Part shown: positions 47,357-64,000 of the stretch, in pieces
Position numbering within the stretch: position 1 is the stretch's first letter
How the letters are laid out: each line of letters opens with the position of its first letter
Assembly (NCBI GenBank): GCA_028718635.1
Contig: JAQULK010000001.1
Location: forward strand, 543,834 to 607,833
From: Minisyncoccota bacterium
GTDB lineage: Bacteria; Patescibacteriota; Minisyncoccia; Phycocordibacterales; UBA9973
Reading direction: 5' to 3'
Length of the DNA: 64,000 nt
Position numbers and translations under genes: made by a program
The notes under the pieces: model-generated
What the model was told of the DNA's origin: nothing
Database searches by the model: none
The model's input: the letters and a program-made list of their open reading frames with translations, nothing else

Positions 47357-49105
47357 CTAATACACCTCCCCCTGATAACATTTCTCACAATAAATAATTT
47401 CAGGACGTTCCGGAGCATAACTGGTCTCAAACTCTACAGGGCATTTACCTATATGGGTATGGGTAGTCTTTTCACACATGCAGGCTCTATGCCAAAGCTT
47501 TAAGGGATTCCTTTGTTTCAGTCTTTGGTAATGTCTGCAATTAGGACAGAGATGAGGTAAAGGTAGATTCATTCTTTGGTAGAATTGGAGTTCTGGAGCA
47601 ATGATTTTGAAGGCTTCGGTGCATTGTTCATTGCATTTGCCTTGATGTTCGCATTCTATGACTTTCCCTAGGATGGATTCATCTACGTCTTGGATGTTGT
47701 CCGGAATGTCTGTTGTTTTAATGTCTAGGGTATAGTTTCTTTCTTCTGCATCTTTCCATTGGTAACCTTGTTTTAAAGCTTCTTCTTTGGTTAAAGGAAA
47801 GTATTCTTGAGCGATGGTTTCGTTGTAACAGAAAGGGCTTAATTCTGTTGGAAAGAACTCTCCGTATTTATATACTCTACCCTTTGCATCAATGTAGGGC
47901 ATGTCGTTCATGTGCTGGATGATTTTGGGGACTAGTTCTTCGTATTGTTCTTTGGTGTATTGGTGGTTGAGGATGCAGTAGGATTTGTTGCGGAGGCCGA
48001 CGCAGCCAAATAAATTCGAGCAATTATAACAAATAACAGAATACTGCACATTTTGCGATTCTCTTATCTCGACTGAAAAATTTATTTTAGAAGAAGAAAC
48101 TCCTGCGGCAACACTTTCGTAAATAAGTTCACCACCTACTCCACAAGCAATCCCATCATACATATCTCGCACACCACCTCCTAGCCAAAAAGCAAATTTA
48201 CTATCTTCATTTTTTCCATCTACACAGTCAAAAATATATTTGCAGTTTTTGGCGTCTATAATATAGTCCCCGGTAGTGTTTTGCATGCGTACAAAAGAAG
48301 CAAATTTCTTCGGAAGTTTTAATTTTAAGTCTTCAAATTCTTTTTTGTTTTTAATCAAATTACTGTAATTACCTAATTTTAGCCTATCTATTTCTTTAAT
48401 ATAATCGTCTTTCGTATAGGCAATGTTAAAAACATGATACTGTTTATTTCGCAACCCAACACAACCGAAGCAATTTGAACAATTTTTGCAATCATACATT
48501 AAAAATGATTCCACGCAATTTGAACAATTTTCTCCAAAAAATAATTTATATGAATTTTGACAATTTATGTTTTCATAACAGAATTCGACTTTATCAGTAA
48601 AATAAATATCCACAGAATCTCTAGAACTAAAAGGACGATTACCATAAATAATATTTTCTCCCCATCCGCCACCAAAAGTTAAGTAACAGTTCTTGCTGTC
48701 ATCCATCCAATTTACATATTCACAATTTACATTGTTTTTATTGGTTAGATTGCTTCTGGGAACTTTTAGAAATAAATCATTGAACTGTTCGAAAAAAGTC
48801 TTGGAAAAATCATAATCTCTGCCAAAATCCATCGGTGACCAAGAATCTCCCCACCAATATTTTTGATCATACACTACTCCGCTGCCTGGTGAATAAGCAG
48901 AAAATATTTGTTCTTCGTGGCCTAAGGCATCACATTTTCTCTTATATAAAGTTCTCTCATTCCTAAAATTCATCCGTCTTACCATACGGCAAGACCAACA
49001 CCAGGTCGGGGCTGGAACCTTCATTTTTTTATAAAAACTAAAATCGTCAGAATCAATGGTGAAGTCTTTTTTACAGTTTTGACAGATTTTTGTTTGTGGC
49101 GCCAT
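47357..49105 (-). CDS. Cysteine-rich paralog family protein, copy 5 (582 aa), immediately downstream of dnaJ
   Basis: Full family signature. The C-terminal ~205 aa are virtually identical to copy 1. The start codon is 2 nt after the dnaJ stop. Confidence 0.85.
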   Translation of the reverse strand: MAPQTKICQNCKKDFTIDSDDFSFYKKMKVPAPTWCWSCRMVRRMNFRNERTLYKRKCDALGHEEQIFSAYSPGSGVVYDQKYWWGDSWSPMDFGRDYDFSKTFFEQFNDLFLKVPRSNLTNKNNVNCEYVNWMDDSKNCYLTFGGGWGENIIYGNRPFSSRDSVDIYFTDKVEFCYENINCQNSYKLFFGENCSNCVESFLMYDCKNCSNCFGCVGLRNKQYHVFNIAYTKDDYIKEIDRLKLGNYSNLIKNKKEFEDLKLKLPKKFASFVRMQNTTGDYIIDAKNCKYIFDCVDGKNEDSKFAFWLGGGVRDMYDGIACGVGGELIYESVAAGVSSSKINFSVEIRESQNVQYSVICYNCSNLFGCVGLRNKSYCILNHQYTKEQYEELVPKIIQHMNDMPYIDAKGRVYKYGEFFPTELSPFCYNETIAQEYFPLTKEEALKQGYQWKDAEERNYTLDIKTTDIPDNIQDVDESILGKVIECEHQGKCNEQCTEAFKIIAPELQFYQRMNLPLPHLCPNCRHYQRLKQRNPLKLWHRACMCEKTTHTHIGKCPVEFETSYAPERPEIIYCEKCYQGEVY

Positions 49106-49106
49106 T

Positions 49107-50225
49107 TTATATCCCCTCTTTTTTAAGTTCTTCTATTGTTGCACGAGCTTGACGAGAGAGTTTGGTTGGAAGTTTTATGTTGAGTTTAATTAATAGATCC
49201 CCTCTTTTATTTTTTGCAAAAGGCACACCCTTGCCACGAACGCGCAGGATCTCATTTACAGAAACTCCTTCCGGAATCGTCACTTCGATTTCTCCATCCA
49301 AAGTTTGAATAGGATATTTAGTTCCGAGGAGCGCATCGGAGAGTTTTAAATTCAAATTCATCACTAGGTCATTTCCCTCTCGCTTGAATATAGGATGCGG
49401 AGCCACATTTATTTTTATATAAAGATCCCCCGTAGTGCCTTTAGAAACTGCCTCTCCGTAGCCTGTCATGCGAATCATCTCGCCATCGCGAATGCCGGCT
49501 GGAATGACAATGGAAACTTCTTCCTCGCGACGAAGTACTCCTTTGCCTTTACATTTTTCACAAACTTCTTTCGGCACTTCGCCTGTACCCAGACAGACTT
49601 CGCAAGTTTTCGTACTGGCGATATTTCCAAAAATTGTTCTTTTTGATTCGCGAATGCGTCCCTGTCCATTGCAATTTTTACAGGTTTCCATTTTAGTTCC
49701 AGGTTTCGCGCCGGAACCTTTACAAGTCTCGCAGGTGGAAGTTTTGGTAATTAAAACTTTTCTGGTTACGCCAAAGATAGAATCAGCGAAAGAAATTTGA
49801 ATCTCCGTAGAGATATCTCTGCCTCGACGCGCTTCTTGTCTTCCTCCGCCCATTCCGCCTCCGAAGAAATCACTGAAAATATCATTGAGGTCAAACTCGG
49901 CAGAACCGTTTTGAAAACCGCCAAAGCCCTGCCCAGAAAAATTACTGAAATCAAAACCACCGAAGCCACCTTGCCTTGGGTCGCCGTAGCCTCCGGCAGA
50001 GGCACCTCCCATATTTTCAAAACCTGATCCGAATTGATCATACTTTGAACGCTTGGCGTCGTCGGAAAGCACTTGATAAGCTTCGTTGGCTTGCTTAAAT
50101 TTTGCTTCATTACCGCCCTTTTTATCAGGGTGATATTTCTGCGCCAACTTATAAAAAGCCTTCTTGATTTCATCTTTAGAGGCAGTTTTATTCACACCTA
50201 AAATGTCATAATAGTCTTTATTCAT
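49107..50225 (-). CDS. dnaJ: Chaperone DnaJ
   Basis: J-domain (DYYDILGV...HPDK), G/F-rich linker and four CxxCxGxG zinc-finger repeats; 372 aa. Confidence 0.9.
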
Positions 50226-50240
50226 AACATTATTCGACTA

Positions 50241-51755
50241 TTATATCATAGGCTCAGCCTCTTGTGAAGTTTTAGTTTCTATTTTTTGATTATTTTCCTT
50301 AATCTCTGATTCTTCAGATATTTCTTCTCCCCTTTCTTTTGCTTTTCTTTTAGCTTTTCCTTCAATAATAGCCTTTTCTTCCGCACTTCGAATGATGGTA
50401 GCTTCTTCTTCAGCGATAAGTTTTGCCGCATCGTCTTTTGAAATTGAGTACTTCCTACGCGAGGCATCAACAATTTCTTTTCTATAAGACGGATGTGTGG
50501 GCGCTAAAACCCGCAAGGTCTCAGCGGAAAATGGATCATAAGATTCTCCATCGATGGTCATCTTGATATAAATTTCTCCTACTGCGAGATTGATCATATC
50601 TTTCACATCAAAGAGTGGCGCAAATTCTGGTTTCATTTTGACGGCATCTTCACCACCAACACGAAAAGTAATGATACTACCGCAATTTCCGAGCACTGCC
50701 TGATGAACTTTCGTAATAATTTGGCCCACATACTGGTGGGCGATAGTTAAGTTTAATCCGTACTTTCTAGCCTCGGATAATATATTTTCAAAAGTTTGGG
50801 TGACGACATTTTGGAACTCATCTACGTATAAATAAAAATCTGTGCGGTCTTTTTCCGGAATAGCCGCACGTTCCATGCCGGCTTGTTTTATTTTTGTCAA
50901 AAACATTGAACCCAAAAAGGAAGAATTTTCTTCTCCAAGTCGGCCCTTGGAAAGGTTGATGAAAATTATTTTTCCTTCATTCATCAGCTTACTGATATCA
51001 ATCTTATTCTGTTTCTGACCGAAAATATTTCGAAGTAATGGATCGGAAAGAAATTGGCCGAGCTTGTTTACGAGCGGGATGATAGCGTCCGTATCGAATT
51101 TCTCCGACCAGTCGGCAAATTCTATAGCGAAGAATCTTTTGACCATATCGTCGGTAATATATTCCACCACTTTTTGCCTGTAATTCCTGTCAGTCAACAT
51201 TGAGATCATCCCACGCATAGTAGCATGCGGATAATCAAGCAAGGCCAAACAAGTAAAACGAAAAACGTGCTCCAGACGAGGAGTCCAGTTGGCTCCGAAT
51301 TGCTTTTGAAATACTTCGATCAATCCTTGGGTCAATTGGAATTTAAACATCGGATCGACATTTGCGAGCGGATTGAAAGAAGCTGGAAAATCAATATCTG
51401 GCGGATCTATAATGCAGACATCTTCTATACGTTCTTTTGGTATATAGTCCAGCATCGCGTCAATCACATCGCCGTGCGGATCGATCAGGCACAAGCCATG
51501 ACCATAAGTCACATCTTGCCTGAGCATGAGTTCTAGAAGTTTCGTTTTACCAACACCAGACTTTCCGATGATATAAAGATGTCTTCGTCTATCTATTCTT
51601 TTTATTCCAAAAATAAATTTTTTCTCTTCTAAAGAAGCAACGTAATTTGTCCGTCCGATAAAAGAAACTTCAGCCGGATCTACTTTGCCGAACACAGGCA
51701 GTTCTGGTGGTGGTGGTCCGTATTTTATTATTTGCACTCGATTCGGCTTGGGCAT
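50241..51755 (-). CDS. P-loop ATPase of the TraD/VirD4 (type IV coupling protein)/FtsK-HerA superfamily, paralog 1 (504 aa)
   Basis: Walker A IIGKSGVGKT, Walker B LYVDEFQNV, and a C-terminal EARKYGLNLTIAHQYVGQI motif resembling the TraD/TraG C-terminal domain. Acidic/Lys-rich tail. Confidence 0.6.
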   Translation of the reverse strand: MPKPNRVQIIKYGPPPPELPVFGKVDPAEVSFIGRTNYVASLEEKKFIFGIKRIDRRRHLYIIGKSGVGKTKLLELMLRQDVTYGHGLCLIDPHGDVIDAMLDYIPKERIEDVCIIDPPDIDFPASFNPLANVDPMFKFQLTQGLIEVFQKQFGANWTPRLEHVFRFTCLALLDYPHATMRGMISMLTDRNYRQKVVEYITDDMVKRFFAIEFADWSEKFDTDAIIPLVNKLGQFLSDPLLRNIFGQKQNKIDISKLMNEGKIIFINLSKGRLGEENSSFLGSMFLTKIKQAGMERAAIPEKDRTDFYLYVDEFQNVVTQTFENILSEARKYGLNLTIAHQYVGQIITKVHQAVLGNCGSIITFRVGGEDAVKMKPEFAPLFDVKDMINLAVGEIYIKMTIDGESYDPFSAETLRVLAPTHPSYRKEIVDASRRKYSISKDDAAKLIAEEEATIIRSAEEKAIIEGKAKRKAKERGEEISEESEIKENNQKIETKTSQEAEPMI

Positions 51756-51849
51756 AACTAGATATATTTTAGCATAATTTAGGCTTAATTACATTCAAAA
51801 ATAAAATTTTCTATAAAACTAGACGACCGCATTGTTTTATAGTATGAAA

Positions 51850-53586
51850 TTAATATACCTCCTGCTGATAGCATTTTTCACAATACACTATCTCAGGCCG
51901 ATCTGGAGCATAACTCGTCTCAAATTCTACTTCGCATTTTTTAGTTCCGTGAGAATGATTGGTCTTGTCGCACATACACTGCCTGTGCCAAAGTTTTAAT
52001 GGATTAACTTTTTTAAATCTCTCCTGATGCCTGCACTCAAAACATTTTCTAGGCAATGGCAACTTAAATTTTTTCAAAAAAAGATATTCGTTTTGAATAA
52101 TTTTATAAGGTCTTTTGCAGGAAGCGCATTCAATAACTAAATTAATGATATCCTCCTCAGTATTATTGATATGATCTGGTAAATCCTTCGCTTCACAAGT
52201 AGCACTGTATTCTGGTTTGGCCTTCTCGATATAGTTGTAACCTTCATTTAAAATATTTTCCTTAGAAAATGGAAAATAATCTTGCGCAACGGTTTCATTA
52301 TAACCAAAAGGAGAAAGCTCTATTGGAAAATATTCACCATAAGAATATGAATTCCCCTTTTTATCAAAATAAGGCACCTTCGCCATCTGCTCAATAATCT
52401 GTAACCGTAATTCTTCAAATTTTTCTTTAGAATACTGTTTGTTAAAAATACAATAACTTTTATTTCGAAGACCTACACAACCAAAAATATTATTACAACC
52501 ATGACAATTAAAACAATATTCAGCATTTAAACACTCCCAAACTGTTAAGGTGAATAATTGTCTAGACCCATAAACCCCAGAATCCATAGCCTCATAAATC
52601 AATTCTGATTTTTCTCCCGTACCATAAGCGTCATAACTATCTTTTTCACCATTAACCGCGTTAATCACATATTTACAATCTTTCATATCATCTTGAATGG
52701 CAAAGCAATGATGACAATTTTTGGCATGAAAAATATCATCTCCAGAAACATCGACAGAATTTATAATGTTAGCAAATCTTCTGATGGTCTTTAATTTTAG
52801 CTTTTCAAATTCTTCGCTTACTTTTTTAAAATTTTCAAAATTTCCGAGATCTAATTCTTTAAGCTTTTTATCGTACTCTTCTTTGGTCAATTGAACATTC
52901 CACATACAATTAGACTTATTGCGGAGACCAGTGCAACCAAAACAATTTATGCAGTTTTTGCAATCGTAAAGAAAATATGAGCTAGTGCAAGAGTCTGCAT
53001 TATGAGAAAAAAAGGTTTCATAACATTTCAAGGAAGAAACATCTTCATAACAGAATTCGCAATCCTTTACTGTAAACATATCCATGCAATCTTTGCAGGA
53101 ATTGGCGCGCGAGGAATAAGAAATATTCTCGCCTATCCAAGATGCCGATACAAGAAAGGAATTTCTGAATTCGCCGATATAATTGCCATAGGAAGTATTG
53201 ACGCATCTTCCGATAAAAAGGTTTGGTTGAGGAGTTTTTTCCAACAACTCTCGAAATTGCTCAAAGAATAGCCTATTAAAATCATATTCTAAACCATAGT
53301 CCAAAGGATCCCACTCATCGCTCCACCAGATATCTCTCTCATAAATAGTAAATGGGGAATCCGATGAAAAACAACTGATCAGACTCTTGCCAGTTTTTGC
53401 GCATTTATTCCTGTGCAACGCACGTTCGTTTCGCCAAGCAAAACGCCTTTGCATTCGACAATCAGAACAAAAAGTAGGCGGTGGCACTTTTATTTTTTCG
53501 TAAAAATTAAAATCTTCTTGTTCTATCAGAAAATTTTGTTTACAATTTTGACAATTTTTTGTTTCTGCATTCATAAAATTTCTCAA
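51850..53586 (-). CDS. Cysteine-rich paralog family protein, copy 6 (578 aa), between the two ATPase paralogs
   Basis: Family signature at both termini (CQNCKQNFLIEQEDFNFYEKIKVPPPTFCSDCR ... CEVEFETSYAPDRPEIVYCEKCYQQEVY). Confidence 0.85.
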   Translation of the reverse strand: MRNFMNAETKNCQNCKQNFLIEQEDFNFYEKIKVPPPTFCSDCRMQRRFAWRNERALHRNKCAKTGKSLISCFSSDSPFTIYERDIWWSDEWDPLDYGLEYDFNRLFFEQFRELLEKTPQPNLFIGRCVNTSYGNYIGEFRNSFLVSASWIGENISYSSRANSCKDCMDMFTVKDCEFCYEDVSSLKCYETFFSHNADSCTSSYFLYDCKNCINCFGCTGLRNKSNCMWNVQLTKEEYDKKLKELDLGNFENFKKVSEEFEKLKLKTIRRFANIINSVDVSGDDIFHAKNCHHCFAIQDDMKDCKYVINAVNGEKDSYDAYGTGEKSELIYEAMDSGVYGSRQLFTLTVWECLNAEYCFNCHGCNNIFGCVGLRNKSYCIFNKQYSKEKFEELRLQIIEQMAKVPYFDKKGNSYSYGEYFPIELSPFGYNETVAQDYFPFSKENILNEGYNYIEKAKPEYSATCEAKDLPDHINNTEEDIINLVIECASCKRPYKIIQNEYLFLKKFKLPLPRKCFECRHQERFKKVNPLKLWHRQCMCDKTNHSHGTKKCEVEFETSYAPDRPEIVYCEKCYQQEVY

Positions 53587-53647
53587 CTCGCCTCACCCCT
53601 TGCTTTCCCCTCTCCATTACTATGGAGAGGGGCTGGGGAGAGGTTTT

Positions 53648-55792
53648 CTATTCTAAAATTTTTCTTAAAACATCTTCTGGTACTTCCCTCGGCTGTAGCC
53701 CTCCTACGGGCGAAGCTGGTGTTTTTGGCTTTTGGGGAGTTTCTTCCCCTCCTTGTGAAGGAGGGGTGCCTGCCTGCCGGTCAGGCAGGGCTTCAGCCGG
53801 GGTGGTGATTTTTTTCGTAATCAAATCTTTTAATTTATTCATATTTTCCGGAGTAGCTGCGCGGTCAACACCTATTGGACTGACAGGCTTTTTTACTTCC
53901 CTCGGCTGTAGCCCGCCTATGGGCGAAGCTTGCATTTTATTTTTTAGAGAATCAAGTGAAATGGGAGTAGGTGTGGAAACAGGCGTTGGTGTGGATTTAG
54001 TTTCTTCTACTACTACTTTATTTAAAACTTCTCTTAATGCTGAATTGTCCCCATTTACTCGTTTCACAGGAGCTCCACTAATGCGAGCTGGATAAACGGG
54101 TTTGACTTTAACTGGAACTTTTTTAGTAAAAACTTTTTTTATAGACTTAAATACACTAGGCTTGCTTGCTAAAGCAATATCTTTTTCTCCTCTTTCTTGA
54201 TATCTATGTTCTTCTTCAACTCCTCCATTCTTTTGTTTAAATTCTATACCTAAATCAGCCAATGGTTTATAAAATTTAGATTCATCATACTTAATTTGAT
54301 CTTGCCCCCTTTTTTCCACCTTAACTTCTCCAGATTTTATTTTTGCTATACATTCCTTACAATAAACTGCTCGGCCTGGTTCAGGCTTGAAAGGTACCGT
54401 CTTTTCTAACTTACAAAGAGAACAAATTACGGGAAACTTTTCCAAATTTCCATTTCCGTTAGTGTCAGGATAATTGCCCAAGGACATTCCGCTCCAGTTA
54501 TTGATTTCTCTTTCCACTGCCTCGCGAGGCCTACAATAAAGATCCCGGGATGATTTTATTACCTCTTCTTCTATTTTTTTATTACCCGACTTTACTATCG
54601 GAGGCAAAGTCCTAGCGGAAAATGGACGGGAGGTCACGCCATCGATCATCAACTTCAGATAAATTTTATAGTTTGGCAAGTTTACAATATCAGAAGGAGT
54701 GAATTCTGGATCAAATTCTTTTTCTAAAAAGTCTGCATCGTCCGAGCCGACCCTAAAAACTATCATTGTGCCGACGTTACCAAAAACAGCATCACGCACC
54801 GCAGAACTCTTATCAGAAATAAGTTGCGCAGTGTACTGGTGCGCCACCGTCAAATTCAGCCTGTATTTTCTAGCTTCAGACAAAATACCCGCAAAAGCAT
54901 CCGTCACAAAGTTTTGGAATTCGTCGACATAAAGGTAAAAGTCTTTGCGGTATTCCTCAGGGATGCGCACTCGTTCCATCGCGGCTAGTTGAATCTTGGT
55001 AATGATCATTCCTCCTAATAGCCCGGAATTGTCTTCACCGATTCGTCCCTTGGAAACATTCACGAGAAAAATCTTCCCGTCATTCATAATGTCGAAAATG
55101 TTGATCGTACTTACAGATTGGCCGACGACATTGCGGATAATCGAGGTCGAAAGAAATTGCCCGACTTTGTTTTGAATCGGCGCGATGGCCTCATTTCTGA
55201 ATTTATCCTGCCAAGCTTCATACTCATGGACCCAGAAGGCTTTTATAACCGGATCTTTTAGATTAGAAATTATTTTCTGGCGGTAATCTTTGTCTACAAG
55301 CATTCGGGGAATTCCAAGCAGGGTCGTTCCCGGAGTATCGAGCAATGCCAAAATACAATTATTTAAAATATATTCCATTCGGGCACTCCAAGCGTTCGCC
55401 CAGATTTTCGTAAAAATACCCATGAGTCCGGACGCTACCAGATGCTTATATTGCGGATCAATTAATTCCAAAACATTAAAACCGATATGATAATCCGTGT
55501 CTGCCGGATTAAAATAAACTACATCTTTCATTCGCTCCGGCGGAATAGCAGAAAGGACGCCTTCGACGAGTTCTCCGTGCGGATCGACTACGCAGACTCC
55601 TTCGCCGTTCTGAATATTCTGAACTATCATATTAAACATCAAGGCAGATTTACCGGTACCGGACTTTCCGAGAATATAAACATGCTGACGCCTGTCCTTG
55701 CGTTTGATGCCAAAGAGTTGATTTTTGTCGCGAAAAGATGTGAGCCCAAGATAAGTAATATCTCTATTTTTTGGTATTTCTGGCAGTTCCAT
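53648..55792 (-). CDS. TraD/VirD4-like P-loop ATPase, paralog 2, with C-terminal zinc ribbon and Pro-rich repeat tail (714 aa)
   Basis: The N-terminal ~440 aa are homologous to paralog 1 (ILGKSGTGKS, LYVDEFQNFV, EARKYRLNLTVAHQY). This is followed by CSLCK...YCKECIAK and a tandem SPIGGLQPREV-containing tail. An in-frame GC palindrome lies at 53768-53791. Confidence 0.6.
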   Translation of the reverse strand: MELPEIPKNRDITYLGLTSFRDKNQLFGIKRKDRRQHVYILGKSGTGKSALMFNMIVQNIQNGEGVCVVDPHGELVEGVLSAIPPERMKDVVYFNPADTDYHIGFNVLELIDPQYKHLVASGLMGIFTKIWANAWSARMEYILNNCILALLDTPGTTLLGIPRMLVDKDYRQKIISNLKDPVIKAFWVHEYEAWQDKFRNEAIAPIQNKVGQFLSTSIIRNVVGQSVSTINIFDIMNDGKIFLVNVSKGRIGEDNSGLLGGMIITKIQLAAMERVRIPEEYRKDFYLYVDEFQNFVTDAFAGILSEARKYRLNLTVAHQYTAQLISDKSSAVRDAVFGNVGTMIVFRVGSDDADFLEKEFDPEFTPSDIVNLPNYKIYLKLMIDGVTSRPFSARTLPPIVKSGNKKIEEEVIKSSRDLYCRPREAVEREINNWSGMSLGNYPDTNGNGNLEKFPVICSLCKLEKTVPFKPEPGRAVYCKECIAKIKSGEVKVEKRGQDQIKYDESKFYKPLADLGIEFKQKNGGVEEEHRYQERGEKDIALASKPSVFKSIKKVFTKKVPVKVKPVYPARISGAPVKRVNGDNSALREVLNKVVVEETKSTPTPVSTPTPISLDSLKNKMQASPIGGLQPREVKKPVSPIGVDRAATPENMNKLKDLITKKITTPAEALPDRQAGTPPSQGGEETPQKPKTPASPVGGLQPREVPEDVLRKILE

Positions 55793-55816
55793 ATAGTTAT
55801 TATTTTACAACAAAAT

Positions 55817-55851
55817 CACAAAAACAAAAAGCCCCTTGAAGGGGCTTTTTG
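55817..55851 (-). terminator. Rho-independent terminator downstream of dnaK (AAAGCCCC-TTGAA-GGGGCTTT, T-runs on both strands)
   Basis: 8-bp GC-rich stem. The minus-strand transcript continues into TTTTTGTTTTTG. Confidence 0.65.
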
Positions 55852-55854
55852 TAG

Positions 55855-57759
55855 TTACGCCTTAGGCTCTTCGCCTTCAGGACCTTTTTCTTTAAACTCA
55901 GCGTCTTTGACTTCGGCTGGTTGTTCTTCGGGAGTTCCAGCTGGAGGAGTTTCGGTCCCTGCCTTTGCCATTGCTTCTCCTATCTTAGACATTTCAGCAG
56001 AAAGTTCTTCAGTGGCTTTTTTGATCGCCTCTCCATCGGTGCCATCTTTCACCCCTCGCAACGCAGTTATCTTTGCATTCACTTCATCTTTTAATTCTGC
56101 AGGAATTTTTGCTTCATTGTCTTTGAGCGCTTTTTCTGCAGTGTAAATTATCATCTCTGCAGTGTTTTTCACTTCTGCATTTTCTTTCTTTTTCTTATCC
56201 TCTTCAGCATGAAGCTCTGCATCAGCTTGCATTTTCTTGATGTCTTCTTCCTTGAGCCCGGAACTGGCTTCGATTTTAATTGATTGAGTTTTTCCAGATG
56301 CTTTATCTTTTGCAGAAACGTTTAGGATTCCATTTACATCCACATCAAAAGCAACTTCAATCTGGGGCATGCCACGAGGAGCTGGTGGAACTCCATCTAA
56401 AATAAATCGGCCTAGAGATTTGTTGTCAGATGCCATCGGGCGTTCTCCTTGCACAATATGTATTTCTACAGAAGTTTGATTGTCAGCAGCAGTAGAAAAT
56501 GTTTGGGACTTACTCGAAGGAATAGTGGTATTTCTTTCAATTAATTTTGTAGCCACTCCTCCTAAAGTCTCAATCCCTAAGGATAGAGGAATCACATCCA
56601 GAAGCAACACATCACGAACATCCCCTTGCAACACGCCTGCTTGGACGGCTGCACCGAGCGCCACGACTTCATCAGGGTTAATAGACATATTTGGAACTTT
56701 GCCGAAAAGATTTTGTACTGCAGAAACTATGGCTGGCATTCTCGTCTGACCGCCCACCATGATAATTTCATTAATTTCATTCATCTTAAATGGAGAAGCG
56801 GAAAGAGCTCTTTTAGTAATTTCAATGGATCGATCTATGTATTCCTTAGCAAGAGATTCCAACATCGCACGAGACATCTTGAGCAATAAATGCTTTGGAC
56901 CAGAAGCATCAGAAGTAATAAAAGGAATATTTATTTCAGTTTCCGTAGTGGTAGAAAGTTCATGCTTAGCTTTTTCGGCAGCTTCTTTTAGTCTTTGGTG
57001 CGCCAGAGGATCTTTGATCACATCAATACCAGATTCTTTTTTATATTCTTCAGCTATCCACCCTATTATTTTTCTATCAATATCCCCTCCGCCCATATGG
57101 CTGTCTCCATCGGTGGATTTAACTTCAATAACGTCATCGCCTATTTCTAATACAGACACATCAAAAGTTCCTCCGCCGAAATCGTAAACAACTATCTTTT
57201 CATTTTTCTTTTTATTAAATCCATAAGCAAGCGCTGCAGCCGTTGGTTCGTTGATGATACGCTTTACATCGAGCCCAGCGATAGCTCCTGCATCTTTGGT
57301 CGCTTTTCTTTGGGCATCATTAAAATATGCTGGAACTGTTATTATAGCCTCAGTAATTTTTTCTCCTAACTTTGCTTCAACGTCGGCTTTTATTTTTTGT
57401 AGAATAATCGCGGAAATTTCTTCTGGTCGATAAAACTTATCTGCCATTTTTATTTTTACTCCGCCTCCATCTCCCGCTTCAATTTTAAATGAAGCTGTTT
57501 CGCGATCCTTTTGCACTTCTGGATCATCAAATCGATGTCCCATATAGCGTTTTATTTCAGCAATGGTGTTTTCTGGATTTGTAACCGCTTGTCTTTTTGC
57601 TAAAAGGCCGACGATGCGATCTCCATTTTTTGCAGTCGCTACGACAGAGGGTGTCGTACGATTGCCTTCTACATTCTCTATAATCTTCGGTGCACCGCCT
57701 TCAATGACAGCTACTGCCGAATTTGTTGTTCCTAAATCTATACCTATTATTTTTGACAT
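55855..57759 (-). CDS. dnaK: Chaperone DnaK (Hsp70)
   Basis: [35 protein letters not shown] Hsp70 signatures; 634 aa. Confidence 0.95.
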
Positions 57760-57857
57760 ATATTTTATAAGGTTAATTTATAATTTTTAATAATTTACTA
57801 ATATTTCGCGACCACTAAAAACTTGTATAAACAGAGTATATATGATAACATATATCC

Positions 57858-58406
57858 ATGTCAAGTTATTCAAGAAAAATACTTAAAAAACTAGCCGAAA
57901 GACCGGCAATTTCCGTGGAAGATTTAAAAGACCTGCCTGCCATGCCTACCGGCAGGCAGGCCGGCGAGGCAGGAAATGATACTAAAACAACCTATGCTAT
58001 TTCTCGCGCCTTAAAAAATTTAGTGGAAGGCAAATATGCAGAAATTCATGAATCCGGAAGGCAAGATTACGTAAAAATTACTCCTCTTGGAAAAAATAAA
58101 TTAAACACGTTGCTCTTGGAAAATGAGAGTGTGCTGGTCCCACAAAATTGGGATGGATTTTGGAGAATTATTTTGCTTGATCTTCCTGAAAGTAGAAAAA
58201 GTGAGCGCGAATCTTTACGCTACCTTTTAAAAAAAGCTGGCTTTGTCTGTCTAAAAAATTCTGCTTGGATTTCTCCCTTCCCTTTTGAACATTTGTTTGC
58301 GAACATAAAAAAAGATCTCGGGCTCACCACCGAGATAATGATCATCGTCACTGAAAATATAGACAACGAAAGTAAAAAAGTTTTATTTGAAAGTTTTGGA
58401 AAGTAG
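57858..58406 (+). CDS. PaaX-like winged-helix regulator family protein (182 aa), opposite strand within the chaperone/Cys-rich cluster
   Basis: C-terminal WDGFWRIILLDLPESRKSERESLRYLLKKAGFVCLKNSAWISP matches the PaaX-type C-terminal domain. The N-terminus carries an in-frame GC palindrome insertion (LPAMPTGRQAGEAGN). Confidence 0.45.
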   Translation: MSSYSRKILKKLAERPAISVEDLKDLPAMPTGRQAGEAGNDTKTTYAISRALKNLVEGKYAEIHESGRQDYVKITPLGKNKLNTLLLENESVLVPQNWDGFWRIILLDLPESRKSERESLRYLLKKAGFVCLKNSAWISPFPFEHLFANIKKDLGLTTEIMIIVTENIDNESKKVLFESFGK

Positions 58407-58412
58407 TAGCAG

Positions 58413-58453
58413 CAGACGTTGGACGTCTGGGAATCTTGACGTCCAACGTCTGT
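58413..58453. repeat. GACGTTGGACGTC-family inverted repeat (CAGACGTTGGACGTC-N11-GACGTCCAACGTCTG)
   Basis: 15-bp perfect arms, intergenic between convergent stops. Related copies at 1-25, 5310-5352 and 7940-7970. Confidence 0.75.
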
Positions 58454-58456
58454 AAC

Positions 58457-60184
58457 CTAGTATATCTCCTGCTGGTAGCATTTCTCGCAATAAACTATTT
58501 CCGGACGGTCGGGCGCATAACTGGTCTCAAATTCAACTTCGCATTTGCCTTTATGATTTGAATGATTTTCTTTATCGCACATGCACTGTCTTTTAAAAAA
58601 AATAGGTGGATTTCGCAACTTTAAACGTTCATAATGTCTGCAATTAATACATAAACGAGGCAATGGAAGGTTCATTCTTTTTAAGAAATCAAATTCTGTT
58701 TTAATTATGCGAAAAGCCTTCGTACATTCATGTTGACAATTTCCTTTATGAGCACATTCAATAGATTGATTCAAGATGTTCTCATCAATTTCTTTTATGT
58801 TATCTGGAATATCTTCATTTATTAATGTAATTTTATAATTTTGCTTTGAAGTTTCATACCACAAAAACCCTTTACTTTTCGCTTTTTCTTCACTTAAAGG
58901 AAAAAATTCATATGCTTGAGTAGCGTTGTACGGAAAAAAGGAAAATTTACTCGGAAAAAATTCTCCGTATTCACTTGTTTCTTTCATGTGTTTAATTATT
59001 AGAGGCACTATTTTTTCATATTCTTCTTTGGTGTATTGCTTGTTGAAGATGCAATATTGTTTATTTTTTAACGAAACACACCCAAAAAGATCTGACGAAC
59101 TACTACAGAAAACACAGTAAGTCAAATTCCTTACATTCGGATAACAGTAAGCACTGAATTTAATATTCGAACTTCCATCACCAACAATAAGACTTTCATA
59201 AATAAGCTCTGCATTTTCTCCATAATTAGAATAATCGTAACAATCTTTCACTGGACCACTTAAAATATTTTGAACGAATTTACTATCTTCCACCGTCCTA
59301 ACACGAAAACAATATTTTGCGTTTTTAGACCCATAGACATAATCACCGGAAACATTCATATTTTGACGGTCATGGATATATTTTTGAGGATAATTAAGCC
59401 AATGCTTATAAGCTTTGTCGCGTAAGATTTCAAAAGCTTTGTTGGAGCCCAAGTTAAATTCTGCAACTTTTTTTAAATATTCTTCTCTTGAATATTGTTT
59501 ATTAAAAATACAATATGATTTATTGCGAAGATTAATTGACCCTAAACAACTATTGCATCCAATACAATCTTTACAGAAAATCATTTCTTGGCAACTTTCA
59601 CAATCAACTGAAAAAAATGTTTTGTAACAAGTTGTTGTATTAACATTTCCATAACTTAATTCACATTTAGTTGTCATGTGACTGTCAAAGGATTGTTTAG
59701 AACCCGTGTCCCAAATAAGATAAGCGGAATCTTCCGTATAAGACGCTCCTCGAACGAGATAGCAATTTTTGCAGCTATGATTATTTGAACAATAATAACA
59801 ATTCACCATATTGTACATAGAATGTACAGGTAGTGGTACTTTATAAAGCAAATCTTTAAACTGTTCAAAAAATGGTTTTGAAAAATTATACTCTTGACCA
59901 TATTCCAAAGGATTCCAAGCATCAGAAATCCAATAATCCCGATCATATATTTTATAAGTGTTTTCTTCAGGGAAAAGTGAGAAAATTTCTTCCCCATTTA
60001 GAGCTTCCTTTTTCTTGAATAAATGCCAATCATTACGCCAAGCCATACGTCTTTGCAACCTGCATTCTGGACAAAAAGTAGGCGGTGGAACCTTTATCTT
60101 TTCATAAAAGTTAAAATCTCCCGACTCTATCGTGAAATCTTTTTGGCAATTTTGGCATATTTTGTTTTCACTGTTACTTTCCAT
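58457..60184 (-). CDS. Cysteine-rich paralog family protein, copy 7 (575 aa)
   Basis: Family signature (CQNCQKDFTIESGDFNFYEKIKVPPPTFCPECR ... CEVEFETSYAPDRPEIVYCEKCYQQEIY). Confidence 0.85.
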   Translation of the reverse strand: MESNSENKICQNCQKDFTIESGDFNFYEKIKVPPPTFCPECRLQRRMAWRNDWHLFKKKEALNGEEIFSLFPEENTYKIYDRDYWISDAWNPLEYGQEYNFSKPFFEQFKDLLYKVPLPVHSMYNMVNCYYCSNNHSCKNCYLVRGASYTEDSAYLIWDTGSKQSFDSHMTTKCELSYGNVNTTTCYKTFFSVDCESCQEMIFCKDCIGCNSCLGSINLRNKSYCIFNKQYSREEYLKKVAEFNLGSNKAFEILRDKAYKHWLNYPQKYIHDRQNMNVSGDYVYGSKNAKYCFRVRTVEDSKFVQNILSGPVKDCYDYSNYGENAELIYESLIVGDGSSNIKFSAYCYPNVRNLTYCVFCSSSSDLFGCVSLKNKQYCIFNKQYTKEEYEKIVPLIIKHMKETSEYGEFFPSKFSFFPYNATQAYEFFPLSEEKAKSKGFLWYETSKQNYKITLINEDIPDNIKEIDENILNQSIECAHKGNCQHECTKAFRIIKTEFDFLKRMNLPLPRLCINCRHYERLKLRNPPIFFKRQCMCDKENHSNHKGKCEVEFETSYAPDRPEIVYCEKCYQQEIY

Positions 60185-60230
60185 TTTTGAAATTTCTTAG
60201 TCTATCATATATGATATGCTAATTAAATAT

Positions 60231-61973
60231 TTAATATATCTCCTGTTGATAACACCGTTCACAGTATACAGTCTCTGGTCGGTCCGGAGCATAGTTCGTT
60301 TCAAATTCTATCTCGCATTTGCCTTTGTGATTTGAATGGTTTTCTTTGTCGCACATACATTCACGTTTATAAAGTCTTGGTAAGGGTAATTGTATAAATC
60401 TTTTGTAATGACGACAATTAGAACAAAGAACAGGAAGCGGTATATTGTGTTTCTTATAAAATTTTAGCTCATAATCCGTCAAACGAAAAGCTACATTACA
60501 ATGATGGTCACACCTCCCTGCATGAGCACATCCTAAAACTTCTTTCAAAATTTCATCATTTACTTCGACTATATTGTCTGGAATTTTTTCTGTTGGTATA
60601 CTAATTTTAAAATTTTTAACAATAGATTCGCGCCAAGTATAACCTTTTTTTGCTGCTTCCTCCTCTGTGATAGGAAAAAATTCCTGAGCTATAGTTTCGT
60701 TGTATCCCCAAGGAGAAAGTTCTACTGGAAAAAATTCACCATATCTATAAATCCTTCCCACCTTATCCACAAAAGGCACATTTTCCATTTGTTTTATGAT
60801 CTCCTCTCGAAGTTTATTAAATTCTTCTTTTGAATAAACCCTGTTTAAAATTGCATTTTCTTTGTTTTTTAGACCGGTACAACCAAATATATCATTGCAA
60901 TTGGCACAAAAATCAACATAATCCGCATCTCGCACAGAGTTATTGGCAGAATGGGAAAACTTTACATTGTAATCGTCTAAGGAACCTGTCACATACTCAT
61001 ACATCATCTCTGACCATCCGCTATAAGTAAAATCCATACAATCTTTTGCAACCAGAGTTCTATAGCCATATTTTACATTTTCCACATCCTCTGAATTAAA
61101 ACAATTTTTACAATTTTTCACATTGGAAAGATTATTTCCTGTAGAATTTACTGAACGAATGATGTTAGCAAAACGATAAATAGCTCTTTGCTTTATCTCT
61201 TCGAATTCCTTGATTAAGATTTCACGCGAAGCCCTGCTTTGTAAATTTAATTTCTTTATCTCTTTTAAATATTCTTCTTTTGAATATTGTTTGTTGCGAA
61301 TATAAAATTCTTTATTGCGCAAATTATAAGAAAGTAAGCAGTTACTACAATTTACACAATCAACCAAAAAATAAGAATCCAAACAATTTCTAGACAATAA
61401 AACGTGCTGGCAATTATAGTTTTTTTCTCCTTCAATATTCTCATATAAACTTTGTCCTTCCTTCATATTTGCGCAATCAATAATATCGCTGGACTTGTCT
61501 ACTGTTGTTGAATAAAAAACATTTTCTGACCCTTTAACGACAGAAACAGATAAGTAAACATTTCTTGATTCCCCAACATAGTTCGAATAATCAGAATTAA
61601 TAGAATTTCTCTGCCAAAGAGCTAACCTTGGTACAGTTTCAAGCAATTCTTTAAATTGTTCAAAAAAAGATCTAGAAAAATCATAACCCCGTCCAAAAGT
61701 AGTAGCTTCCCACGCGTCTCCATGCCAACATTCCCTACAGTAGACAGGAAAGGACACAAATTCAGCATACATTGAAATAATATTTTTTTTACACAGACTG
61801 CAGTCACGACGATACAATACCCTCTCATTACGCCAAGCAAGACGCCTAATAAATCTGCATTCCGGACAAAAAGTAGGAGGCGGTACTTTTATTTTTTCAT
61901 AAAAATTAAAATCTTCTGCCTCTATGATGAAGTCTTTCTTACAGTTTTGACAAATTTTAATTTCTTGTTTCAT
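60231..61973 (-). CDS. Cysteine-rich paralog family protein, copy 8 (~580 aa)
   Basis: Family signature. The start is trimmed to the internal MKQEIKICQNCKK Met (61973), 2 nt after the upstream copy's stop. Confidence 0.8.
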   Translation of the reverse strand: MKQEIKICQNCKKDFIIEAEDFNFYEKIKVPPPTFCPECRFIRRLAWRNERVLYRRDCSLCKKNIISMYAEFVSFPVYCRECWHGDAWEATTFGRGYDFSRSFFEQFKELLETVPRLALWQRNSINSDYSNYVGESRNVYLSVSVVKGSENVFYSTTVDKSSDIIDCANMKEGQSLYENIEGEKNYNCQHVLLSRNCLDSYFLVDCVNCSNCLLSYNLRNKEFYIRNKQYSKEEYLKEIKKLNLQSRASREILIKEFEEIKQRAIYRFANIIRSVNSTGNNLSNVKNCKNCFNSEDVENVKYGYRTLVAKDCMDFTYSGWSEMMYEYVTGSLDDYNVKFSHSANNSVRDADYVDFCANCNDIFGCTGLKNKENAILNRVYSKEEFNKLREEIIKQMENVPFVDKVGRIYRYGEFFPVELSPWGYNETIAQEFFPITEEEAAKKGYTWRESIVKNFKISIPTEKIPDNIVEVNDEILKEVLGCAHAGRCDHHCNVAFRLTDYELKFYKKHNIPLPVLCSNCRHYKRFIQLPLPRLYKRECMCDKENHSNHKGKCEIEFETNYAPDRPETVYCERCYQQEIY

Positions 61974-61975
61974 TT

Positions 61976-63649
61976 TTAAGCAATATTCTGCTTGTAACAT
62001 TCTTCGCAAGCGATTTTCTGATATCCCCACTCTGGCAAATAATACGCTTCAACTTCTTTTTCGCAATAAAAACACTTATACGGATATGCTTGCAAAACGG
62101 TCAAGTATTTCAAACTATTTTTTATACGCACGTCAAAATGACGACGCGGAAGCGGAATATTGTTCTCTCTATAAAAAGAGAGTTCGTTTTGGGCAATATT
62201 AAAACGCCAGCCTGTCTCCGGGCATATGAGCGCTTGAGTAATAATGGTATCTGGTACATCTTTTATGTCATCAGGCAATTCGCTTGTAGGCATTCCATCT
62301 ATATGATTCTCTATGATATCTTCCCAATAACCTCCAAGTTTTAAAATATCTTCTTTTTTTGTATCTGGAAAATATAAAAAGCTTGTTGAAAAATTGAAAG
62401 GTCCTGCGCTCATAGCGTAAGGTAAAAACTTTCCATATTCTCCCCTCTTTTTCATATCAGAAACTATTTCATCTTTTAGTTTTTCATACTCTTCCTTGTC
62501 ATACTGTTTATTTAAAATGCAATATTTTTTCTTCTTGAGTCCAACACAACCAAAACAATATTCACATTCAAAACAAATGTCTAAATATTCAGAATACCTG
62601 GAAGGAGACCAACTCGAATATTTGAGAGAATAACTATTTCCTTGACAGGCGCTGCAATTACCAGACAATTCCAAAAACTGACAACCATTAGAATCAATAC
62701 TTGATTTTAATTCTTGCCCTCTGATACAATTTGATAAATCTTCAGAAGTTTGTATCGTATTACAATTGTGACAATTTTTTACATCTAATAAATAATTTCC
62801 ATCTGAATTATGTGTTTTTAGATTAAAATTTGGCCTGTGAACTACCTCTTTTATAATTATTTCCTCAAAACGTCTTTTATATTTTTGGATAGAACCATAG
62901 GAACCTAAATTAAATGATTTTATTTTTTTTTCATATTCCTCTTTAGAATACTGAACATTTTCTATGCAATGAGATTTGTTGCGTAAATTCCAACACATAA
63001 AACAGTTTTGGCAATTTCGACAATCGTATAAAAATCTAGAGTCTATGCAATCACGAGAATGTTTGGAATAAAAAAGTTTATAAGAGTTAAAGCAATCTGA
63101 GGAATCATAACTTTTTTCGCAAAAAAAACCAACAATCATATCAAAAGAATTCTTTACTCCTATATTTCTATATGAATAATACAAATCTTCACAATCCACC
63201 ATCGAACGAGATAAATAACAATTTTTTGAATTCCAAACATCATCGCACCAATCACAACCAGTATTCTTTATACCTCCTTGGTGTGGGTGAGGAATTTTTT
63301 CTTGAAGTTCTTGTAATTGCTCAAAAAAAGGCTTACTAGAATTATAATCCATTCCATAATCCATCGCGTCCCATTTGTCGCTGTACCATTCGTTTAAAGT
63401 ATAGATCGGGTATCTGCTTTTTTCCGGCAAAACAGTGATCAAGCTCTCTCCTGAAAGGTCTGATTTGCCTTTGCGGAATTTTCCAAACATCCAAAAAGAT
63501 AAATGTAATTTTACTCGACAGAAAAAACAAAGCGTTGGCAGTTCAATATCAACTTTTTTATATAAAGATAATTCCTCTTCTGTAATTGTGAAGTCTTGCT
63601 GGCAGTGTTCACAAATTTTATGTTGCTGATTCTTTGTATTCATATACAT
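61976..63649 (-). CDS. Cysteine-rich paralog family protein, copy 9 (557 aa, most divergent member)
   Basis: Recognisable but diverged termini (ICEHCQQDFTITEEELSLYKKVDIELPTLCFFCR ... CFYCEKEV...IACEECYKQNIA) and the same C-x2-C module architecture. Its start overlaps the grpE 3' end. Confidence 0.75.
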   Translation of the reverse strand: MYMNTKNQQHKICEHCQQDFTITEEELSLYKKVDIELPTLCFFCRVKLHLSFWMFGKFRKGKSDLSGESLITVLPEKSRYPIYTLNEWYSDKWDAMDYGMDYNSSKPFFEQLQELQEKIPHPHQGGIKNTGCDWCDDVWNSKNCYLSRSMVDCEDLYYSYRNIGVKNSFDMIVGFFCEKSYDSSDCFNSYKLFYSKHSRDCIDSRFLYDCRNCQNCFMCWNLRNKSHCIENVQYSKEEYEKKIKSFNLGSYGSIQKYKRRFEEIIIKEVVHRPNFNLKTHNSDGNYLLDVKNCHNCNTIQTSEDLSNCIRGQELKSSIDSNGCQFLELSGNCSACQGNSYSLKYSSWSPSRYSEYLDICFECEYCFGCVGLKKKKYCILNKQYDKEEYEKLKDEIVSDMKKRGEYGKFLPYAMSAGPFNFSTSFLYFPDTKKEDILKLGGYWEDIIENHIDGMPTSELPDDIKDVPDTIITQALICPETGWRFNIAQNELSFYRENNIPLPRRHFDVRIKNSLKYLTVLQAYPYKCFYCEKEVEAYYLPEWGYQKIACEECYKQNIA

Positions 63650-64000
63650 TGACTCTCGCAGGGCGTATCACGCGTTCACCTAGTTTGTAACCTTTCTGAA
63701 TCACATTGGCGACTGTGTGGTCTTGTTCTTTTTTGTTTGTCTCCACTGCTTCGATAGACTGATGAATATTCGGATCAAAATTCTCTCCGGTTTCGCCTAT
63801 TGCTTTCACTCCATACTCTTCAAAGATTGCATTCATTTGCGCGTAAATATATTCGACGCCCTTTCTCCAATTGTCGTCTACTTTCTCCCAAGCTTCTTTG
63901 TTTGCAAAAGCCATATCAAAACTATCAGAGACTGTTAGGAAACGAGTCAAAATTCTTTCTCGCATCGCTTCTGAAAAAATCGCTTTCCGATCTTCTTCTT
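63618..64000 (-). CDS. grpE: Nucleotide exchange factor GrpE, C-terminal part (N-terminus beyond the window end)
   Basis: LTVSDSFDMAFAN...GVEYIYAQMNAIFEEYGVKAI...NIHQSIEAVET...IQKGYKLGERVIRPARVNV matches the GrpE dimerisation/beta domain. My translation shows the frame stays open to the window edge. Confidence 0.8.
   Translation of the reverse strand, partial: EEDRKAIFSEAMRERILTRFLTVSDSFDMAFANKEAWEKVDDNWRKGVEYIYAQMNAIFEEYGVKAIGETGENFDPNIHQSIEAVETNKKEQDHTVANVIQKGYKLGERVIRPARVNVYEYKESAT

Follow-up and report, generated by a model that had tools for sequence, protein, structure and literature searches.

We analysed a 64,000-nucleotide (nt) stretch of contig JAQULK010000001.1 (positions 543,834 to 607,833) from a Minisyncoccota bacterium, hereafter the window, in which five genes for large cysteine-rich (Cys-rich) proteins and two genes for P-loop ATPases resembling VirD4 and TraD stand interleaved among grpE, dnaK and dnaJ, the genes of the Hsp70 chaperone set. 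The genes and features of the region, which is transcribed mainly from the minus strand, are given below in the order of transcription.

63618–64000, minus strand: C-terminal part of grpE, 126 codons, stop codon at 63618–63620; the gene extends past the window end
61976–63649, minus strand: Cys9, a Cys-rich paralog of 557 amino acids (aa), the most divergent copy
60231–61973, minus strand: Cys8, a Cys-rich paralog of 580 aa counted from the ATG at 61973, 2 nt past the Cys9 stop
58457–60184, minus strand: Cys7, a Cys-rich paralog of 575 aa
57858–58406, plus strand: gene for a PaaX_M-like winged-helix protein of 182 aa (PF20803 at 71 bits), divergent from dnaK
57835–57864, minus strand: promoter-like site of dnaK, TTGACA-18-TATACT, a consensus match only (11 of 12 positions)
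55855–57759, minus strand: dnaK, 634 aa (HSP70, PF00012 at 802 bits)
55824–55852, minus strand: intrinsic-terminator-like hairpin between dnaK and ATPase2, with a 13-bp stem and a T-run
53648–55792, minus strand: ATPase2, a VirD4/TraD-like P-loop ATPase of 714 aa with a long low-complexity C-terminal tail
54341–54439, minus strand: CxxC-x17-CxxC treble-clef zinc finger in the ATPase2 tail, residues 452–484
51850–53586, minus strand: Cys6, a Cys-rich paralog of 578 aa counted from a TTG; the probable ATG is at 53574
50241–51755, minus strand: ATPase1, a VirD4/TraD-like P-loop ATPase of 504 aa
49107–50225, minus strand: dnaJ, 372 aa, type I with a zinc-finger domain (DnaJ, DnaJ_CXXCXGXG and DnaJ_C domains)
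47357–49105, minus strand: Cys5, a Cys-rich paralog of 582 aa, its ATG 1 nt past the dnaJ stop
46731–47309, minus strand: gene for a polytopic membrane protein of 192 aa with about six transmembrane (TM) segments, the final gene of the co-oriented run

Open reading frames (ORFs) and Pfam domains bore out the gene order given in a preliminary description of the sequence, which runs from grpE through Cys9, Cys8, Cys7, the PaaX-like gene on the opposite strand, dnaK, the hairpin, ATPase2, Cys6, ATPase1 and dnaJ to Cys5. The partial grpE gene was identified through tblastn orthologs (72–85% identity) at the same position in related loci. Several junctions are tight. The overlap described between the Cys9 start and the grpE stop is present (about 30 nt, with the Cys9 ATG at 63649), as is the 2-nt gap between Cys9 and Cys8; ATPase1 and dnaJ are 15 nt apart, and the spacer between dnaJ and Cys5, given earlier as 2 nt, measures 1 nt. 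Individual copies can be followed into related loci (numbered L). For example, orthologs of Cys9 with 71–76% identity lie immediately 3' of grpE in L014 and L113, and orthologs of Cys6 (74–79% identity) occupy the matching slot in L007, L021, L096 and L145. The terminator proposed past dnaK corresponds to the hairpin and T-run at 55824–55852. Co-transcription of the whole unit, which had been implied, is not what these signals suggest: dnaK has its own strong promoter-like site after the opposite-strand PaaX-like gene, which makes at least two transcription units probable, and with the terminator-like hairpin past dnaK the region from grpE to Cys5 would probably yield more than one transcript.

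The locus shares with the canonical (hrcA-)grpE-dnaK-dnaJ operon of Gram-positive bacteria the same three genes, their relative order and orientation, and a regulator-like gene beside dnaK. It differs in that the chaperone genes are separated by 3 + 1 + 1 Cys-rich genes, two ATPase genes and one opposite-strand gene, and in that the regulator-like neighbour is PaaX_M-like and lies on the opposite strand. No controlling inverted repeat of chaperone expression (CIRCE; TTAGCACTC-N9-GAGTGCTAA, up to three mismatches) was found within the window, the region 5' of grpE lying outside it, and control by HrcA and CIRCE was rejected on this ground. The PaaX_M-like protein is a candidate regulator and may replace HrcA. 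A strong GC-rich 13-bp hairpin lies inside its gene (57930–57962), in AT-rich surroundings.

To follow the arrangement in other genomes, ATPase1 was scanned against one genome per species, which returned 425 relatives; the best 80 loci were annotated by tblastn with the proteins of the window. Another 80 loci came from metagenomes, which were scanned with distant ATPase1-type sequences. Loci whose ATPase1 is at least 83% identical to that of the window were grouped as class A, which comprises 114 loci on independent contigs of "Nomurabacteria"-type Patescibacteria; 34 of the metagenome loci belong to it and 46 do not. Class A keeps the order grpE-(PaaX-like, opposite strand)-dnaK-ATPase2-ATPase1-dnaJ-membrane protein-cysS (opposite strand), from which only L065 departs in part, and the recurrence of this order in 114 independent contigs is far beyond chance. 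Further, dnaJ lies directly 3' of ATPase1 in 103 of 106 loci, no Cys-rich gene stands between dnaK and ATPase2 in 57 of 60, and the PaaX_M-like gene has the same position and orientation wherever a locus covers that region. The 192-aa membrane protein, which matches no Pfam or NCBIfam family, follows dnaJ or its following Cys-rich gene in 77 loci (directly after dnaJ in 66 of the 77) and was detected in no locus outside class A. The contigs with this fixed interleaved order span CysS identities down to 47%.

The Cys-rich genes of class A are more variable. The slot between ATPase2 and ATPase1 holds zero, one, two, three or four of them in 23, 24, 19, 7 and 2 of 75 loci, respectively, and fewer are located 3' of grpE and 3' of dnaJ. 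Every detected copy is co-oriented with the operon, and 139 copies in 1,027 kb on the operon side compare with none in the 469 kb from cysS onward. In class A, then, the ATPases form the constant part of the interleaving, which the Cys-rich genes fill in varying number. The comparison of synteny that the preliminary description had proposed as a check thus turns out positive for class A (114 contigs, with L065 a partial exception), and the interleaving with chaperone genes is restricted to this class.

Of the 46 metagenome loci outside class A, one showed dnaK and two showed dnaJ; in the others neither gene was detected. Cys-rich genes lie beside the ATPase in 35 of these 46 loci (87 copies, all co-oriented), in arrays of 1–11 genes that are typically bracketed by ATPase1-type and ATPase2-type genes; the maximum was 11 copies in 21 kb (L131). 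DUF8128 was present in 24 of the loci, a small TM protein in 21 and an ATPase2-type gene in 18. Unsupervised clustering of ORFs returned as recurrent families the ATPases, the Cys-rich family, DUF8128, the small TM protein, a sigma70_r4/HARE-HTH protein, SecD/SecF and CutA1. For example, a Liptonbacteria contig carries, in this order, genes for the sigma70_r4/HARE-HTH protein, a 454-aa DUF8128 protein with an N-terminal TM segment, a 166-aa TM protein, an ATPase1-type protein and CutA1, and then, after further genes, three Cys-rich proteins, an ATPase2-type protein with the zinc finger, and trmD. In a Kaiserbacteria locus, DUF8128 and the TM protein are divergent from an ATPase1-type gene that is followed by four Cys-rich genes and an ATPase2-type gene. 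Loci of both types contain the complete module and no chaperone genes. All five loci looked up through DUF8128, the Kaiserbacteria locus among them, show the same block, and L081, L166, L168 and L169 are Pfam-annotated examples.

Some of these neighbourhoods are extended. The block secD-secF > sigma70_r4/HARE-HTH > DUF8128 > small TM protein > ATPase1-type is found in L166–L170, L091, L095, L101, L138, L141, L143 and L159. The gene for CutA1, a protein linked to divalent-ion tolerance, lies directly 3' of the ATPase1-type gene or within the Cys-rich array in L081, L106, L108, L109, L112, L127, L131, L138, L141, L147, L165 and L170, and in L081 and L170 comEC follows a few genes downstream. In L138, L166, L167 and L169, chaperone genes are found 4–10 kb upstream of the DUF8128-ATPase block in the same orientation (dnaJ in all four, and also dnaK in L138 and L166), set apart from it by other genes and secDF. 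As the chaperone genes are thus loose neighbours of the module in some relatives, the class-A arrangement looks as if such a neighbourhood had been compacted. The linkage of the ATPases with Cys-rich arrays is conserved and ancient, and since the two cluster in distant relatives without chaperone interleaving, they probably represent a hitherto unrecognised system of their own.

The Walker motifs are intact in both ATPases (Walker A, GKSGVGKT / GKSGTGKS; Walker B, YLYVDEF), and the TraD/TraG-like C-terminal motif ascribed to them was recovered as SEARKYGLNLTIAHQY in ATPase1 and SEARKYRLNLTVAHQY in ATPase2. Both pass the Pfam gathering scores for TrwB_AAD_bind, DUF87, TraG-D_C and T4SS-DNA_transf (40.1, 32.8, 25.2 and 28.1 bits, respectively, for ATPase2). 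The NCBIfam cut-offs for TraD/VirD4 were missed widely, with 53.8 bits for TIGR03743 (cut-off 366) and 50.6 bits for NF045973 (cut-off 250). Matches to CedD and FtsK_SpoIIIE were weak, and TrwB was the only relative in the PDB by sequence, also weak. No TM-like segment was found (maximum 19-residue Kyte-Doolittle score of 1.06 for ATPase1 and 1.13 for ATPase2), and both proteins are predicted to be soluble. The finger in the ATPase2 tail scores above both curated cut-offs (38.9 bits against 27 for PF23477, 40.8 bits against 36 for TIGR04272), and this ATPase2-type zinc finger is retained in distant lineages. The same tail contains a GC-rich 45-nt direct repeat (53681–53725 and 53894–53938) that encodes ASP[IV]GGLQPREV and gives rise to a spurious 157-aa ORF on the opposite strand (53622–54095); the PaaX-like protein and the C-terminus of CysS contain PTG(E/R)A(G) peptides resembling the repeat.

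Across the 80 sampled species genomes, mean identity to the window was 88.9% for ATPase1, 86.2% for DnaK, 77.2% for DnaJ, 72.1% for ATPase2 and 64.2% for CysS. A level of conservation close to that of DnaK suggests that ATPase1 has a core role in the cell. The ATPases are 84–93% identical across these genomes and, given their presence at the same site in 114 contigs, vertical and strongly constrained inheritance is indicated. A full HMMER search for the ATPase family returned 21,636 cluster representatives at E ≤1e-3. Among the best 150 of these, three architectures were seen, namely short ATPase1-like proteins, ATPase2-like proteins with a long C-terminal tail, several of which carry the zinc finger, and proteins with an N-terminal extension of 230–450 aa, some of which start with a TM helix. 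In other lineages the separate TM protein DUF8128 adjoins the ATPases or is fused to a third paralog, and the linker of the extended type (SRKGEPPxxLP) matches both the C-terminal end of stand-alone DUF8128 and the ATPase1 N-terminus (IKYGPPPPELP). The fused N-terminal extension, in some cases with a TM helix, and the linker match to DUF8128 suggest a membrane-associated machine.

The nearest known proteins are the type IV coupling proteins (T4CPs; TrwB of R388, VirD4 and TraD), with which the ATPases share the P-loop domain with its Walker motifs and the Pfam matches above cut-off. Unlike these, ATPase1 and ATPase2 have no N-terminal TM anchor and no relaxase or VirB4/type IV secretion system (T4SS) genes near them in the 64-kb window; nor did any relaxase- or VirB4-type family recur in 47 loci outside class A. 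They also differ in occurring as two paralogs in tandem context, in the zinc-finger tail of ATPase2, in their vertical inheritance with a DnaK-like level of conservation in ATPase1, and in scoring far below the NCBIfam TraD/VirD4 cut-offs. The searched passages of a recent preprint (bioRxiv 10.1101/2025.01.22.634366) report 5,713 VirD4-type homologs in 2,918 genomes of the Candidate Phyla Radiation (CPR), about two per genome and only 148 of them near virB4, and raise exaptation of these homologs as a possibility. On the strength of those passages, ATPase1 and ATPase2 are very likely such orphan CPR VirD4-type homologs. The pairing of the two, DUF8128, the Cys-rich arrays and the nesting in the dnaK operon are not described in the same passages, in which the term DnaK is absent.

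The four other Cys-rich genes of the window lie apart from the ATPases.

17223–18974, minus strand: Cys1, a Cys-rich paralog between ftsW (19001–20101) and murG (16018–17148)
26487–28238, 24736–26439 and 22942–24705, minus strand: Cys4, Cys3 and Cys2 in tandem, directly 3' of scpA-scpB (28262–29595)

As had been claimed, the Cys-rich proteins are paralogs: all nine copies of the window (five in the chaperone region and four at 17223–28238) are 32–66% identical to one another, with 557–587 aa and 31–37 Cys each. More than 7,900 significant homologs were found, of which the named ones are all from Patescibacteria and all annotated as hypothetical; Cys5 is 100% identical to PHT16_03205, a protein from a "Candidatus Pacebacteria" metagenome-assembled genome (MAG). 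None matches a Pfam or NCBIfam family. The AlphaFold model of Cys5, built from 46 sequences (predicted local distance difference test score, pLDDT, 82; predicted template modelling score, pTM, 0.83), has zinc-ribbon-like modules at the N- and C-termini, helical connectors and two strand-rich segments, and the Cys-rich proteins are accordingly modelled as putative combinations of zinc ribbons and beta-solenoid segments. Foldseek found no match for this model in the PDB, and among viral structures it returned only small zinc-ribbon pieces (E 0.006 or worse). About 100 of the 582 residues of Cys5 align with beta-solenoid proteins (ice-binding/antifreeze proteins, left-handed beta-helix enzymes and the curli protein CsgA), at 3–9% identity and in segments with a pLDDT of about 65. 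The zinc-ribbon modules and the helical and alpha/beta parts of the family have no counterpart in those proteins.

The termini of the paralogs are best conserved, with 61% and 74% mean pairwise identity compared with 31–45% in the middle. The N-terminus resembles zf_Tbcl, below the cut-off. The C-terminus resembles the CxxC-x17-CxxC (zf_Tbcl_2 / TIGR04272) domain, of which the ATPase2 tail carries a bona fide copy. In the Pfam comparison this likeness reaches 13.5 bits (E 0.059, cut-off 27), and at the profile level hhalign aligns the C-terminus with the ATPase2-type finger over 33 columns with a probability of 91.7% (E 7.7e-7); weak finger matches were also seen in Cys-rich homologs of L166 and L169. 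The family differs from the domain in that its first CxxC is replaced by CxC...HxH...C. In small proteins of Methanosarcina (M. mazei), this domain type binds zinc (PMC12704099).

Some copies of the family have stretches of DNA in common. Cys1 and Cys5, 30 kb apart, have an exact DNA match of 486 nt in their 3' parts (17249–17734 and 47383–47868) and are 48–74% identical outside this tract, in the 5' two-thirds, a pattern that points to recent gene conversion or to a chimera in the assembly of the MAG. Cys4 and Cys5 have a common 3' flank of about 60 nt (…TTATCACTTTrTrACGGCCGTTAAATTT; 26418–26477 and 47288–47347), which suggests that Cys-rich genes were duplicated or moved along with their downstream spacer. 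We considered whether these genes are transposase-like mobile elements and rejected this, as the paralogs are old (32–66% identity) and the model has no nuclease-like fold; recombination between copies is evident.

We favour, at a probability of roughly 0.45, the reading that the two ATPases and the Cys-rich proteins make up an uncharacterised module, nested in the Hsp70 operon in one clade, in which the ATPases act on the Cys-rich proteins. An ordinary Hsp70 set (grpE, dnaK and dnaJ) and a Parcubacteria-wide module would have merged in one Patescibacterial clade. The core of the module would be two ATPases of the hexamer type, namely the short, ultra-conserved ATPase1 and the zinc-finger-tailed ATPase2, and a variable array of large Cys-rich proteins; in most lineages membrane-anchored DUF8128 and the small TM protein adjoin it, beside secDF. 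Both ATPase genes and part of the Cys-rich genes would have become nested between dnaK and dnaJ in the "Nomurabacteria"-type clade and then stayed there. The Cys-rich proteins would be clients or cargo of the ATPases, which may recognise their conserved termini, including the C-terminal zinc finger of the ATPase2-tail type, and at a membrane platform may remodel, deliver or translocate the proteins. Co-expression with DnaK, DnaJ and GrpE may, in class A, keep clients of 580 aa and about 33 Cys competent. Gene content, domain identities, conservation and linkage are shown directly by the sequences; from them we infer the action of the ATPases on the Cys-rich proteins, the direction of any transport and any physical coupling to Hsp70. 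A more specific version takes the ATPases, DUF8128 with the small TM protein (both encoded beside secDF), and the Cys-rich family as a Patescibacteria-specific delivery or assembly system, in which an ATPase ring would recognise the zinc-finger terminus of the Cys-rich proteins and drive their Sec-independent export or their assembly at the membrane or surface. The Cys-rich proteins might then be, for example, diversifying host-interaction proteins of episymbionts, with Hsp70/Hsp40/GrpE as a holding chaperone in the fused clade. We consider this version rather unlikely.

Several observations weigh against the favoured reading. No channel component was identified, and the Cys-rich proteins have neither signal peptide nor TM segment, which together with their many predicted zinc sites is awkward for export. 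Cys-rich copies are also found far from any ATPase, between ftsW and murG, 3' of scpB, 3' of recA or standing alone. Conversely, L170 has the ATPase module and no Cys-rich gene within 10 kb, and in 23 of the 75 class-A loci the slot between the ATPases contains none. In no class-A locus did DUF8128 or the small TM protein turn up within 10 kb, so that the membrane platform may be absent in the very clade studied here; no Nomurabacteria-named protein occurs among the 120 best DUF8128 homologs, which is suggestive, not proof, of a loss or relocation of DUF8128 in class A. The hairpin past dnaK and the separate promoter-like site argue against one simple transcript. Finally, the link of the ATPases to the Cys-rich proteins or to Hsp70 is one that we draw from sequence and gene neighbourhood.

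The two links in this reading do not stand equally. The preliminary description had proposed a functional system of Cys-rich proteins and ATPases with Hsp70/Hsp40/GrpE. Its first half is strengthened by the linkage of ATPases and Cys-rich genes in distant lineages, and we think it likely that this linkage is functional. The second half is weakened by the confinement of the chaperone interleaving to one clade, and a real functional coupling to the chaperones seems doubtful.

The main rival is a neutral history, which we regard as possible. An old neighbourhood of the form dnaK-dnaJ ... secDF-DUF8128-ATPase1-Cys-ATPase2 would have been rearranged, and proliferating paralogs would have settled co-oriented in tolerant operons, with no functional tie to Hsp70 and possibly none between ATPases and Cys-rich proteins. 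The loci with dnaK or dnaJ 4–10 kb upstream of the block (L138, L166, L167 and L169) fit such a history, since class A could be a compaction of them, as do the varying number of copies per slot (zero to four) and the copies in the ftsW-murG, scpAB and recA operons. Relatives of Cys3, which here belongs to the scpB locus, are 65–70% identical to it and occupy the ATPase slot in L102, L114 and L120, and the 486-nt Cys1/Cys5 match and the common Cys4/Cys5 flank point to ongoing recombination. Against a neutral history, the enrichment of copies beside the ATPases holds in lineages where DUF8128 is only 28–59% identical to the reference copy of L081, and not one copy occurs in the 469 kb immediately downstream in class A. 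Further, the 114 contigs show a fixed interleaved order even though their CysS identities fall as low as 47%, the spacers from ATPase1 through dnaJ to Cys5 are just 1–15 nt, and ATPase2 and the Cys-rich family appear to have a zinc-finger type in common.

At the other extreme, the locus could encode a dedicated system with Hsp70/Hsp40/GrpE, in which the Cys-rich proteins obligatorily depend on the chaperones for folding or metallation, or are fed by them into export. The stable nesting in class A speaks for this, as do the overlapping or 1–2-nt junctions at grpE-Cys9-Cys8 and dnaJ-Cys5, the looser proximity of dnaK and dnaJ in some outgroups, and the presence of CutA1 inside Cys-rich arrays in 11 loci outside class A. 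We nevertheless judge it unlikely. In the other Parcubacterial loci, dnaK and dnaJ are within reach in only 1 and 2 of 46, the Kaiserbacteria-type and Liptonbacteria-type modules are complete without chaperone genes, and the hairpin past dnaK and the dnaK promoter-like site split the supposed unit. The tie of the Cys-rich genes to the chaperones that had been claimed is also loosened by their own distribution, with zero to four copies per slot, none in 23 of 75 loci, and many copies in unrelated operons such as those at ftsW-murG, scpB and recA.

A nucleic-acid machine is improbable in our view. Here, the VirD4/FtsK-like ATPases would pump DNA in uptake, segregation or repair, the zinc-ribbon proteins would be DNA- or RNA-binding adaptors, and the chaperone location would be incidental. 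The ATPases do match DNA-translocating coupling proteins and, weakly, CedD and FtsK_SpoIIIE; nucleic acids are frequent ligands of treble-clef and CxxC-x17-CxxC fingers; L081 and L170 have comEC near the module; and Cys-rich copies adjoin scpAB, recA/ftsK and ftsW. However, clustering of the ORFs at the loci outside class A revealed no relaxase, competence or nuclease gene with a consistent linkage, no relative that binds nucleic acids was found for the putative beta-solenoid core, and 5–11 paralogous adaptors would be hard to explain. According to the searched passages of the preprint cited above, moreover, a T4CP homolog is non-essential in a Saccharibacterium (bioRxiv 10.1101/2025.01.22.634366). 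Lastly, a remnant of an integrated conjugative element or T4SS island in the chaperone operon, for which only the likeness of the ATPases to TraD/VirD4 in Pfam and NCBIfam speaks, was rejected as highly improbable: Pfam and NCBIfam scans of the 64-kb window revealed no relaxase, VirB4, integrase or pilus gene (relaxase or T4SS genes were what the preliminary description had named as evidence for such an element), there is no GC island, the TraD/VirD4 equivalog cut-offs are missed by far, and the ATPases are vertically inherited at a fixed site (114 contigs; 84–93% identity across 80 species).

The remainder of the window is unexceptional in composition and content. The DNA is low in GC, at 33–41% throughout, with no compositional island. 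Each ORF that was scanned against Pfam or NCBIfam had a housekeeping domain or no match; the housekeeping genes include those for aminoacyl-tRNA synthetases, topA, relA/spoT, parB, murG, ftsW, mraY-like, scpAB, dnaB, recR and riboflavin genes. No Rfam family reached its gathering score between 46 and 64 kb. An intergenic repeat family of about 40–80 nt, in direct and inverted copies (AAAAATCCTGAAG…CGCAAAACCCCT), occurs at 12460–12540, 43803–43883 and 35714–35791. A different element of about 80 nt is common to 420–498 and 40400–40477, just 3' of two aminoacyl-tRNA synthetase genes, serS (503–1870) and a class Ib synthetase gene (40477–41436). Between parB and a histidine phosphatase gene, a stand-alone ORF (210 aa, 9685–10317) has a LAGLIDADG_3 domain and possibly encodes a homing endonuclease.

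The class to which the ATPases belong is known, and its orphan status in the CPR has already been remarked. Our literature search returned no work that treats DUF8128, VirD4 of the CPR in connection with DnaK, or a family of Cys-rich paralogs in Parcubacteria; the pairing of ATPase1 with ATPase2, the DUF8128 partner, the Cys-rich family and its linkage with the ATPases, the apparently shared zinc finger and the nesting in the dnaK operon appear to be undescribed in the searchable literature. Patescibacteria have genomes of about 0.6–1 Mb with very little spare coding capacity. Despite this small size, about 16 kb of the window is taken up by the nine Cys-rich paralogs and 3.7 kb by the two ATPases, and the DnaK-level constraint on ATPase1 is unusual for a protein without an assigned role. 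The roughly two orphan VirD4 homologs per CPR genome thereby gain a defined partner set (the ATPase1 type, the zinc-finger ATPase2 type, DUF8128 and the small TM protein) and, as candidate clients, an unannotated family of thousands of proteins; in one clade they are also physically linked to the Hsp70 operon. Even if the chaperone link should prove merely historical, the locus would still be a clear example of a paralog family colonising core operons in reduced genomes. What was a vague "exapted coupling protein" becomes a set of testable hypotheses on how these episymbionts may handle a major class of the proteins they make, or deliver it.

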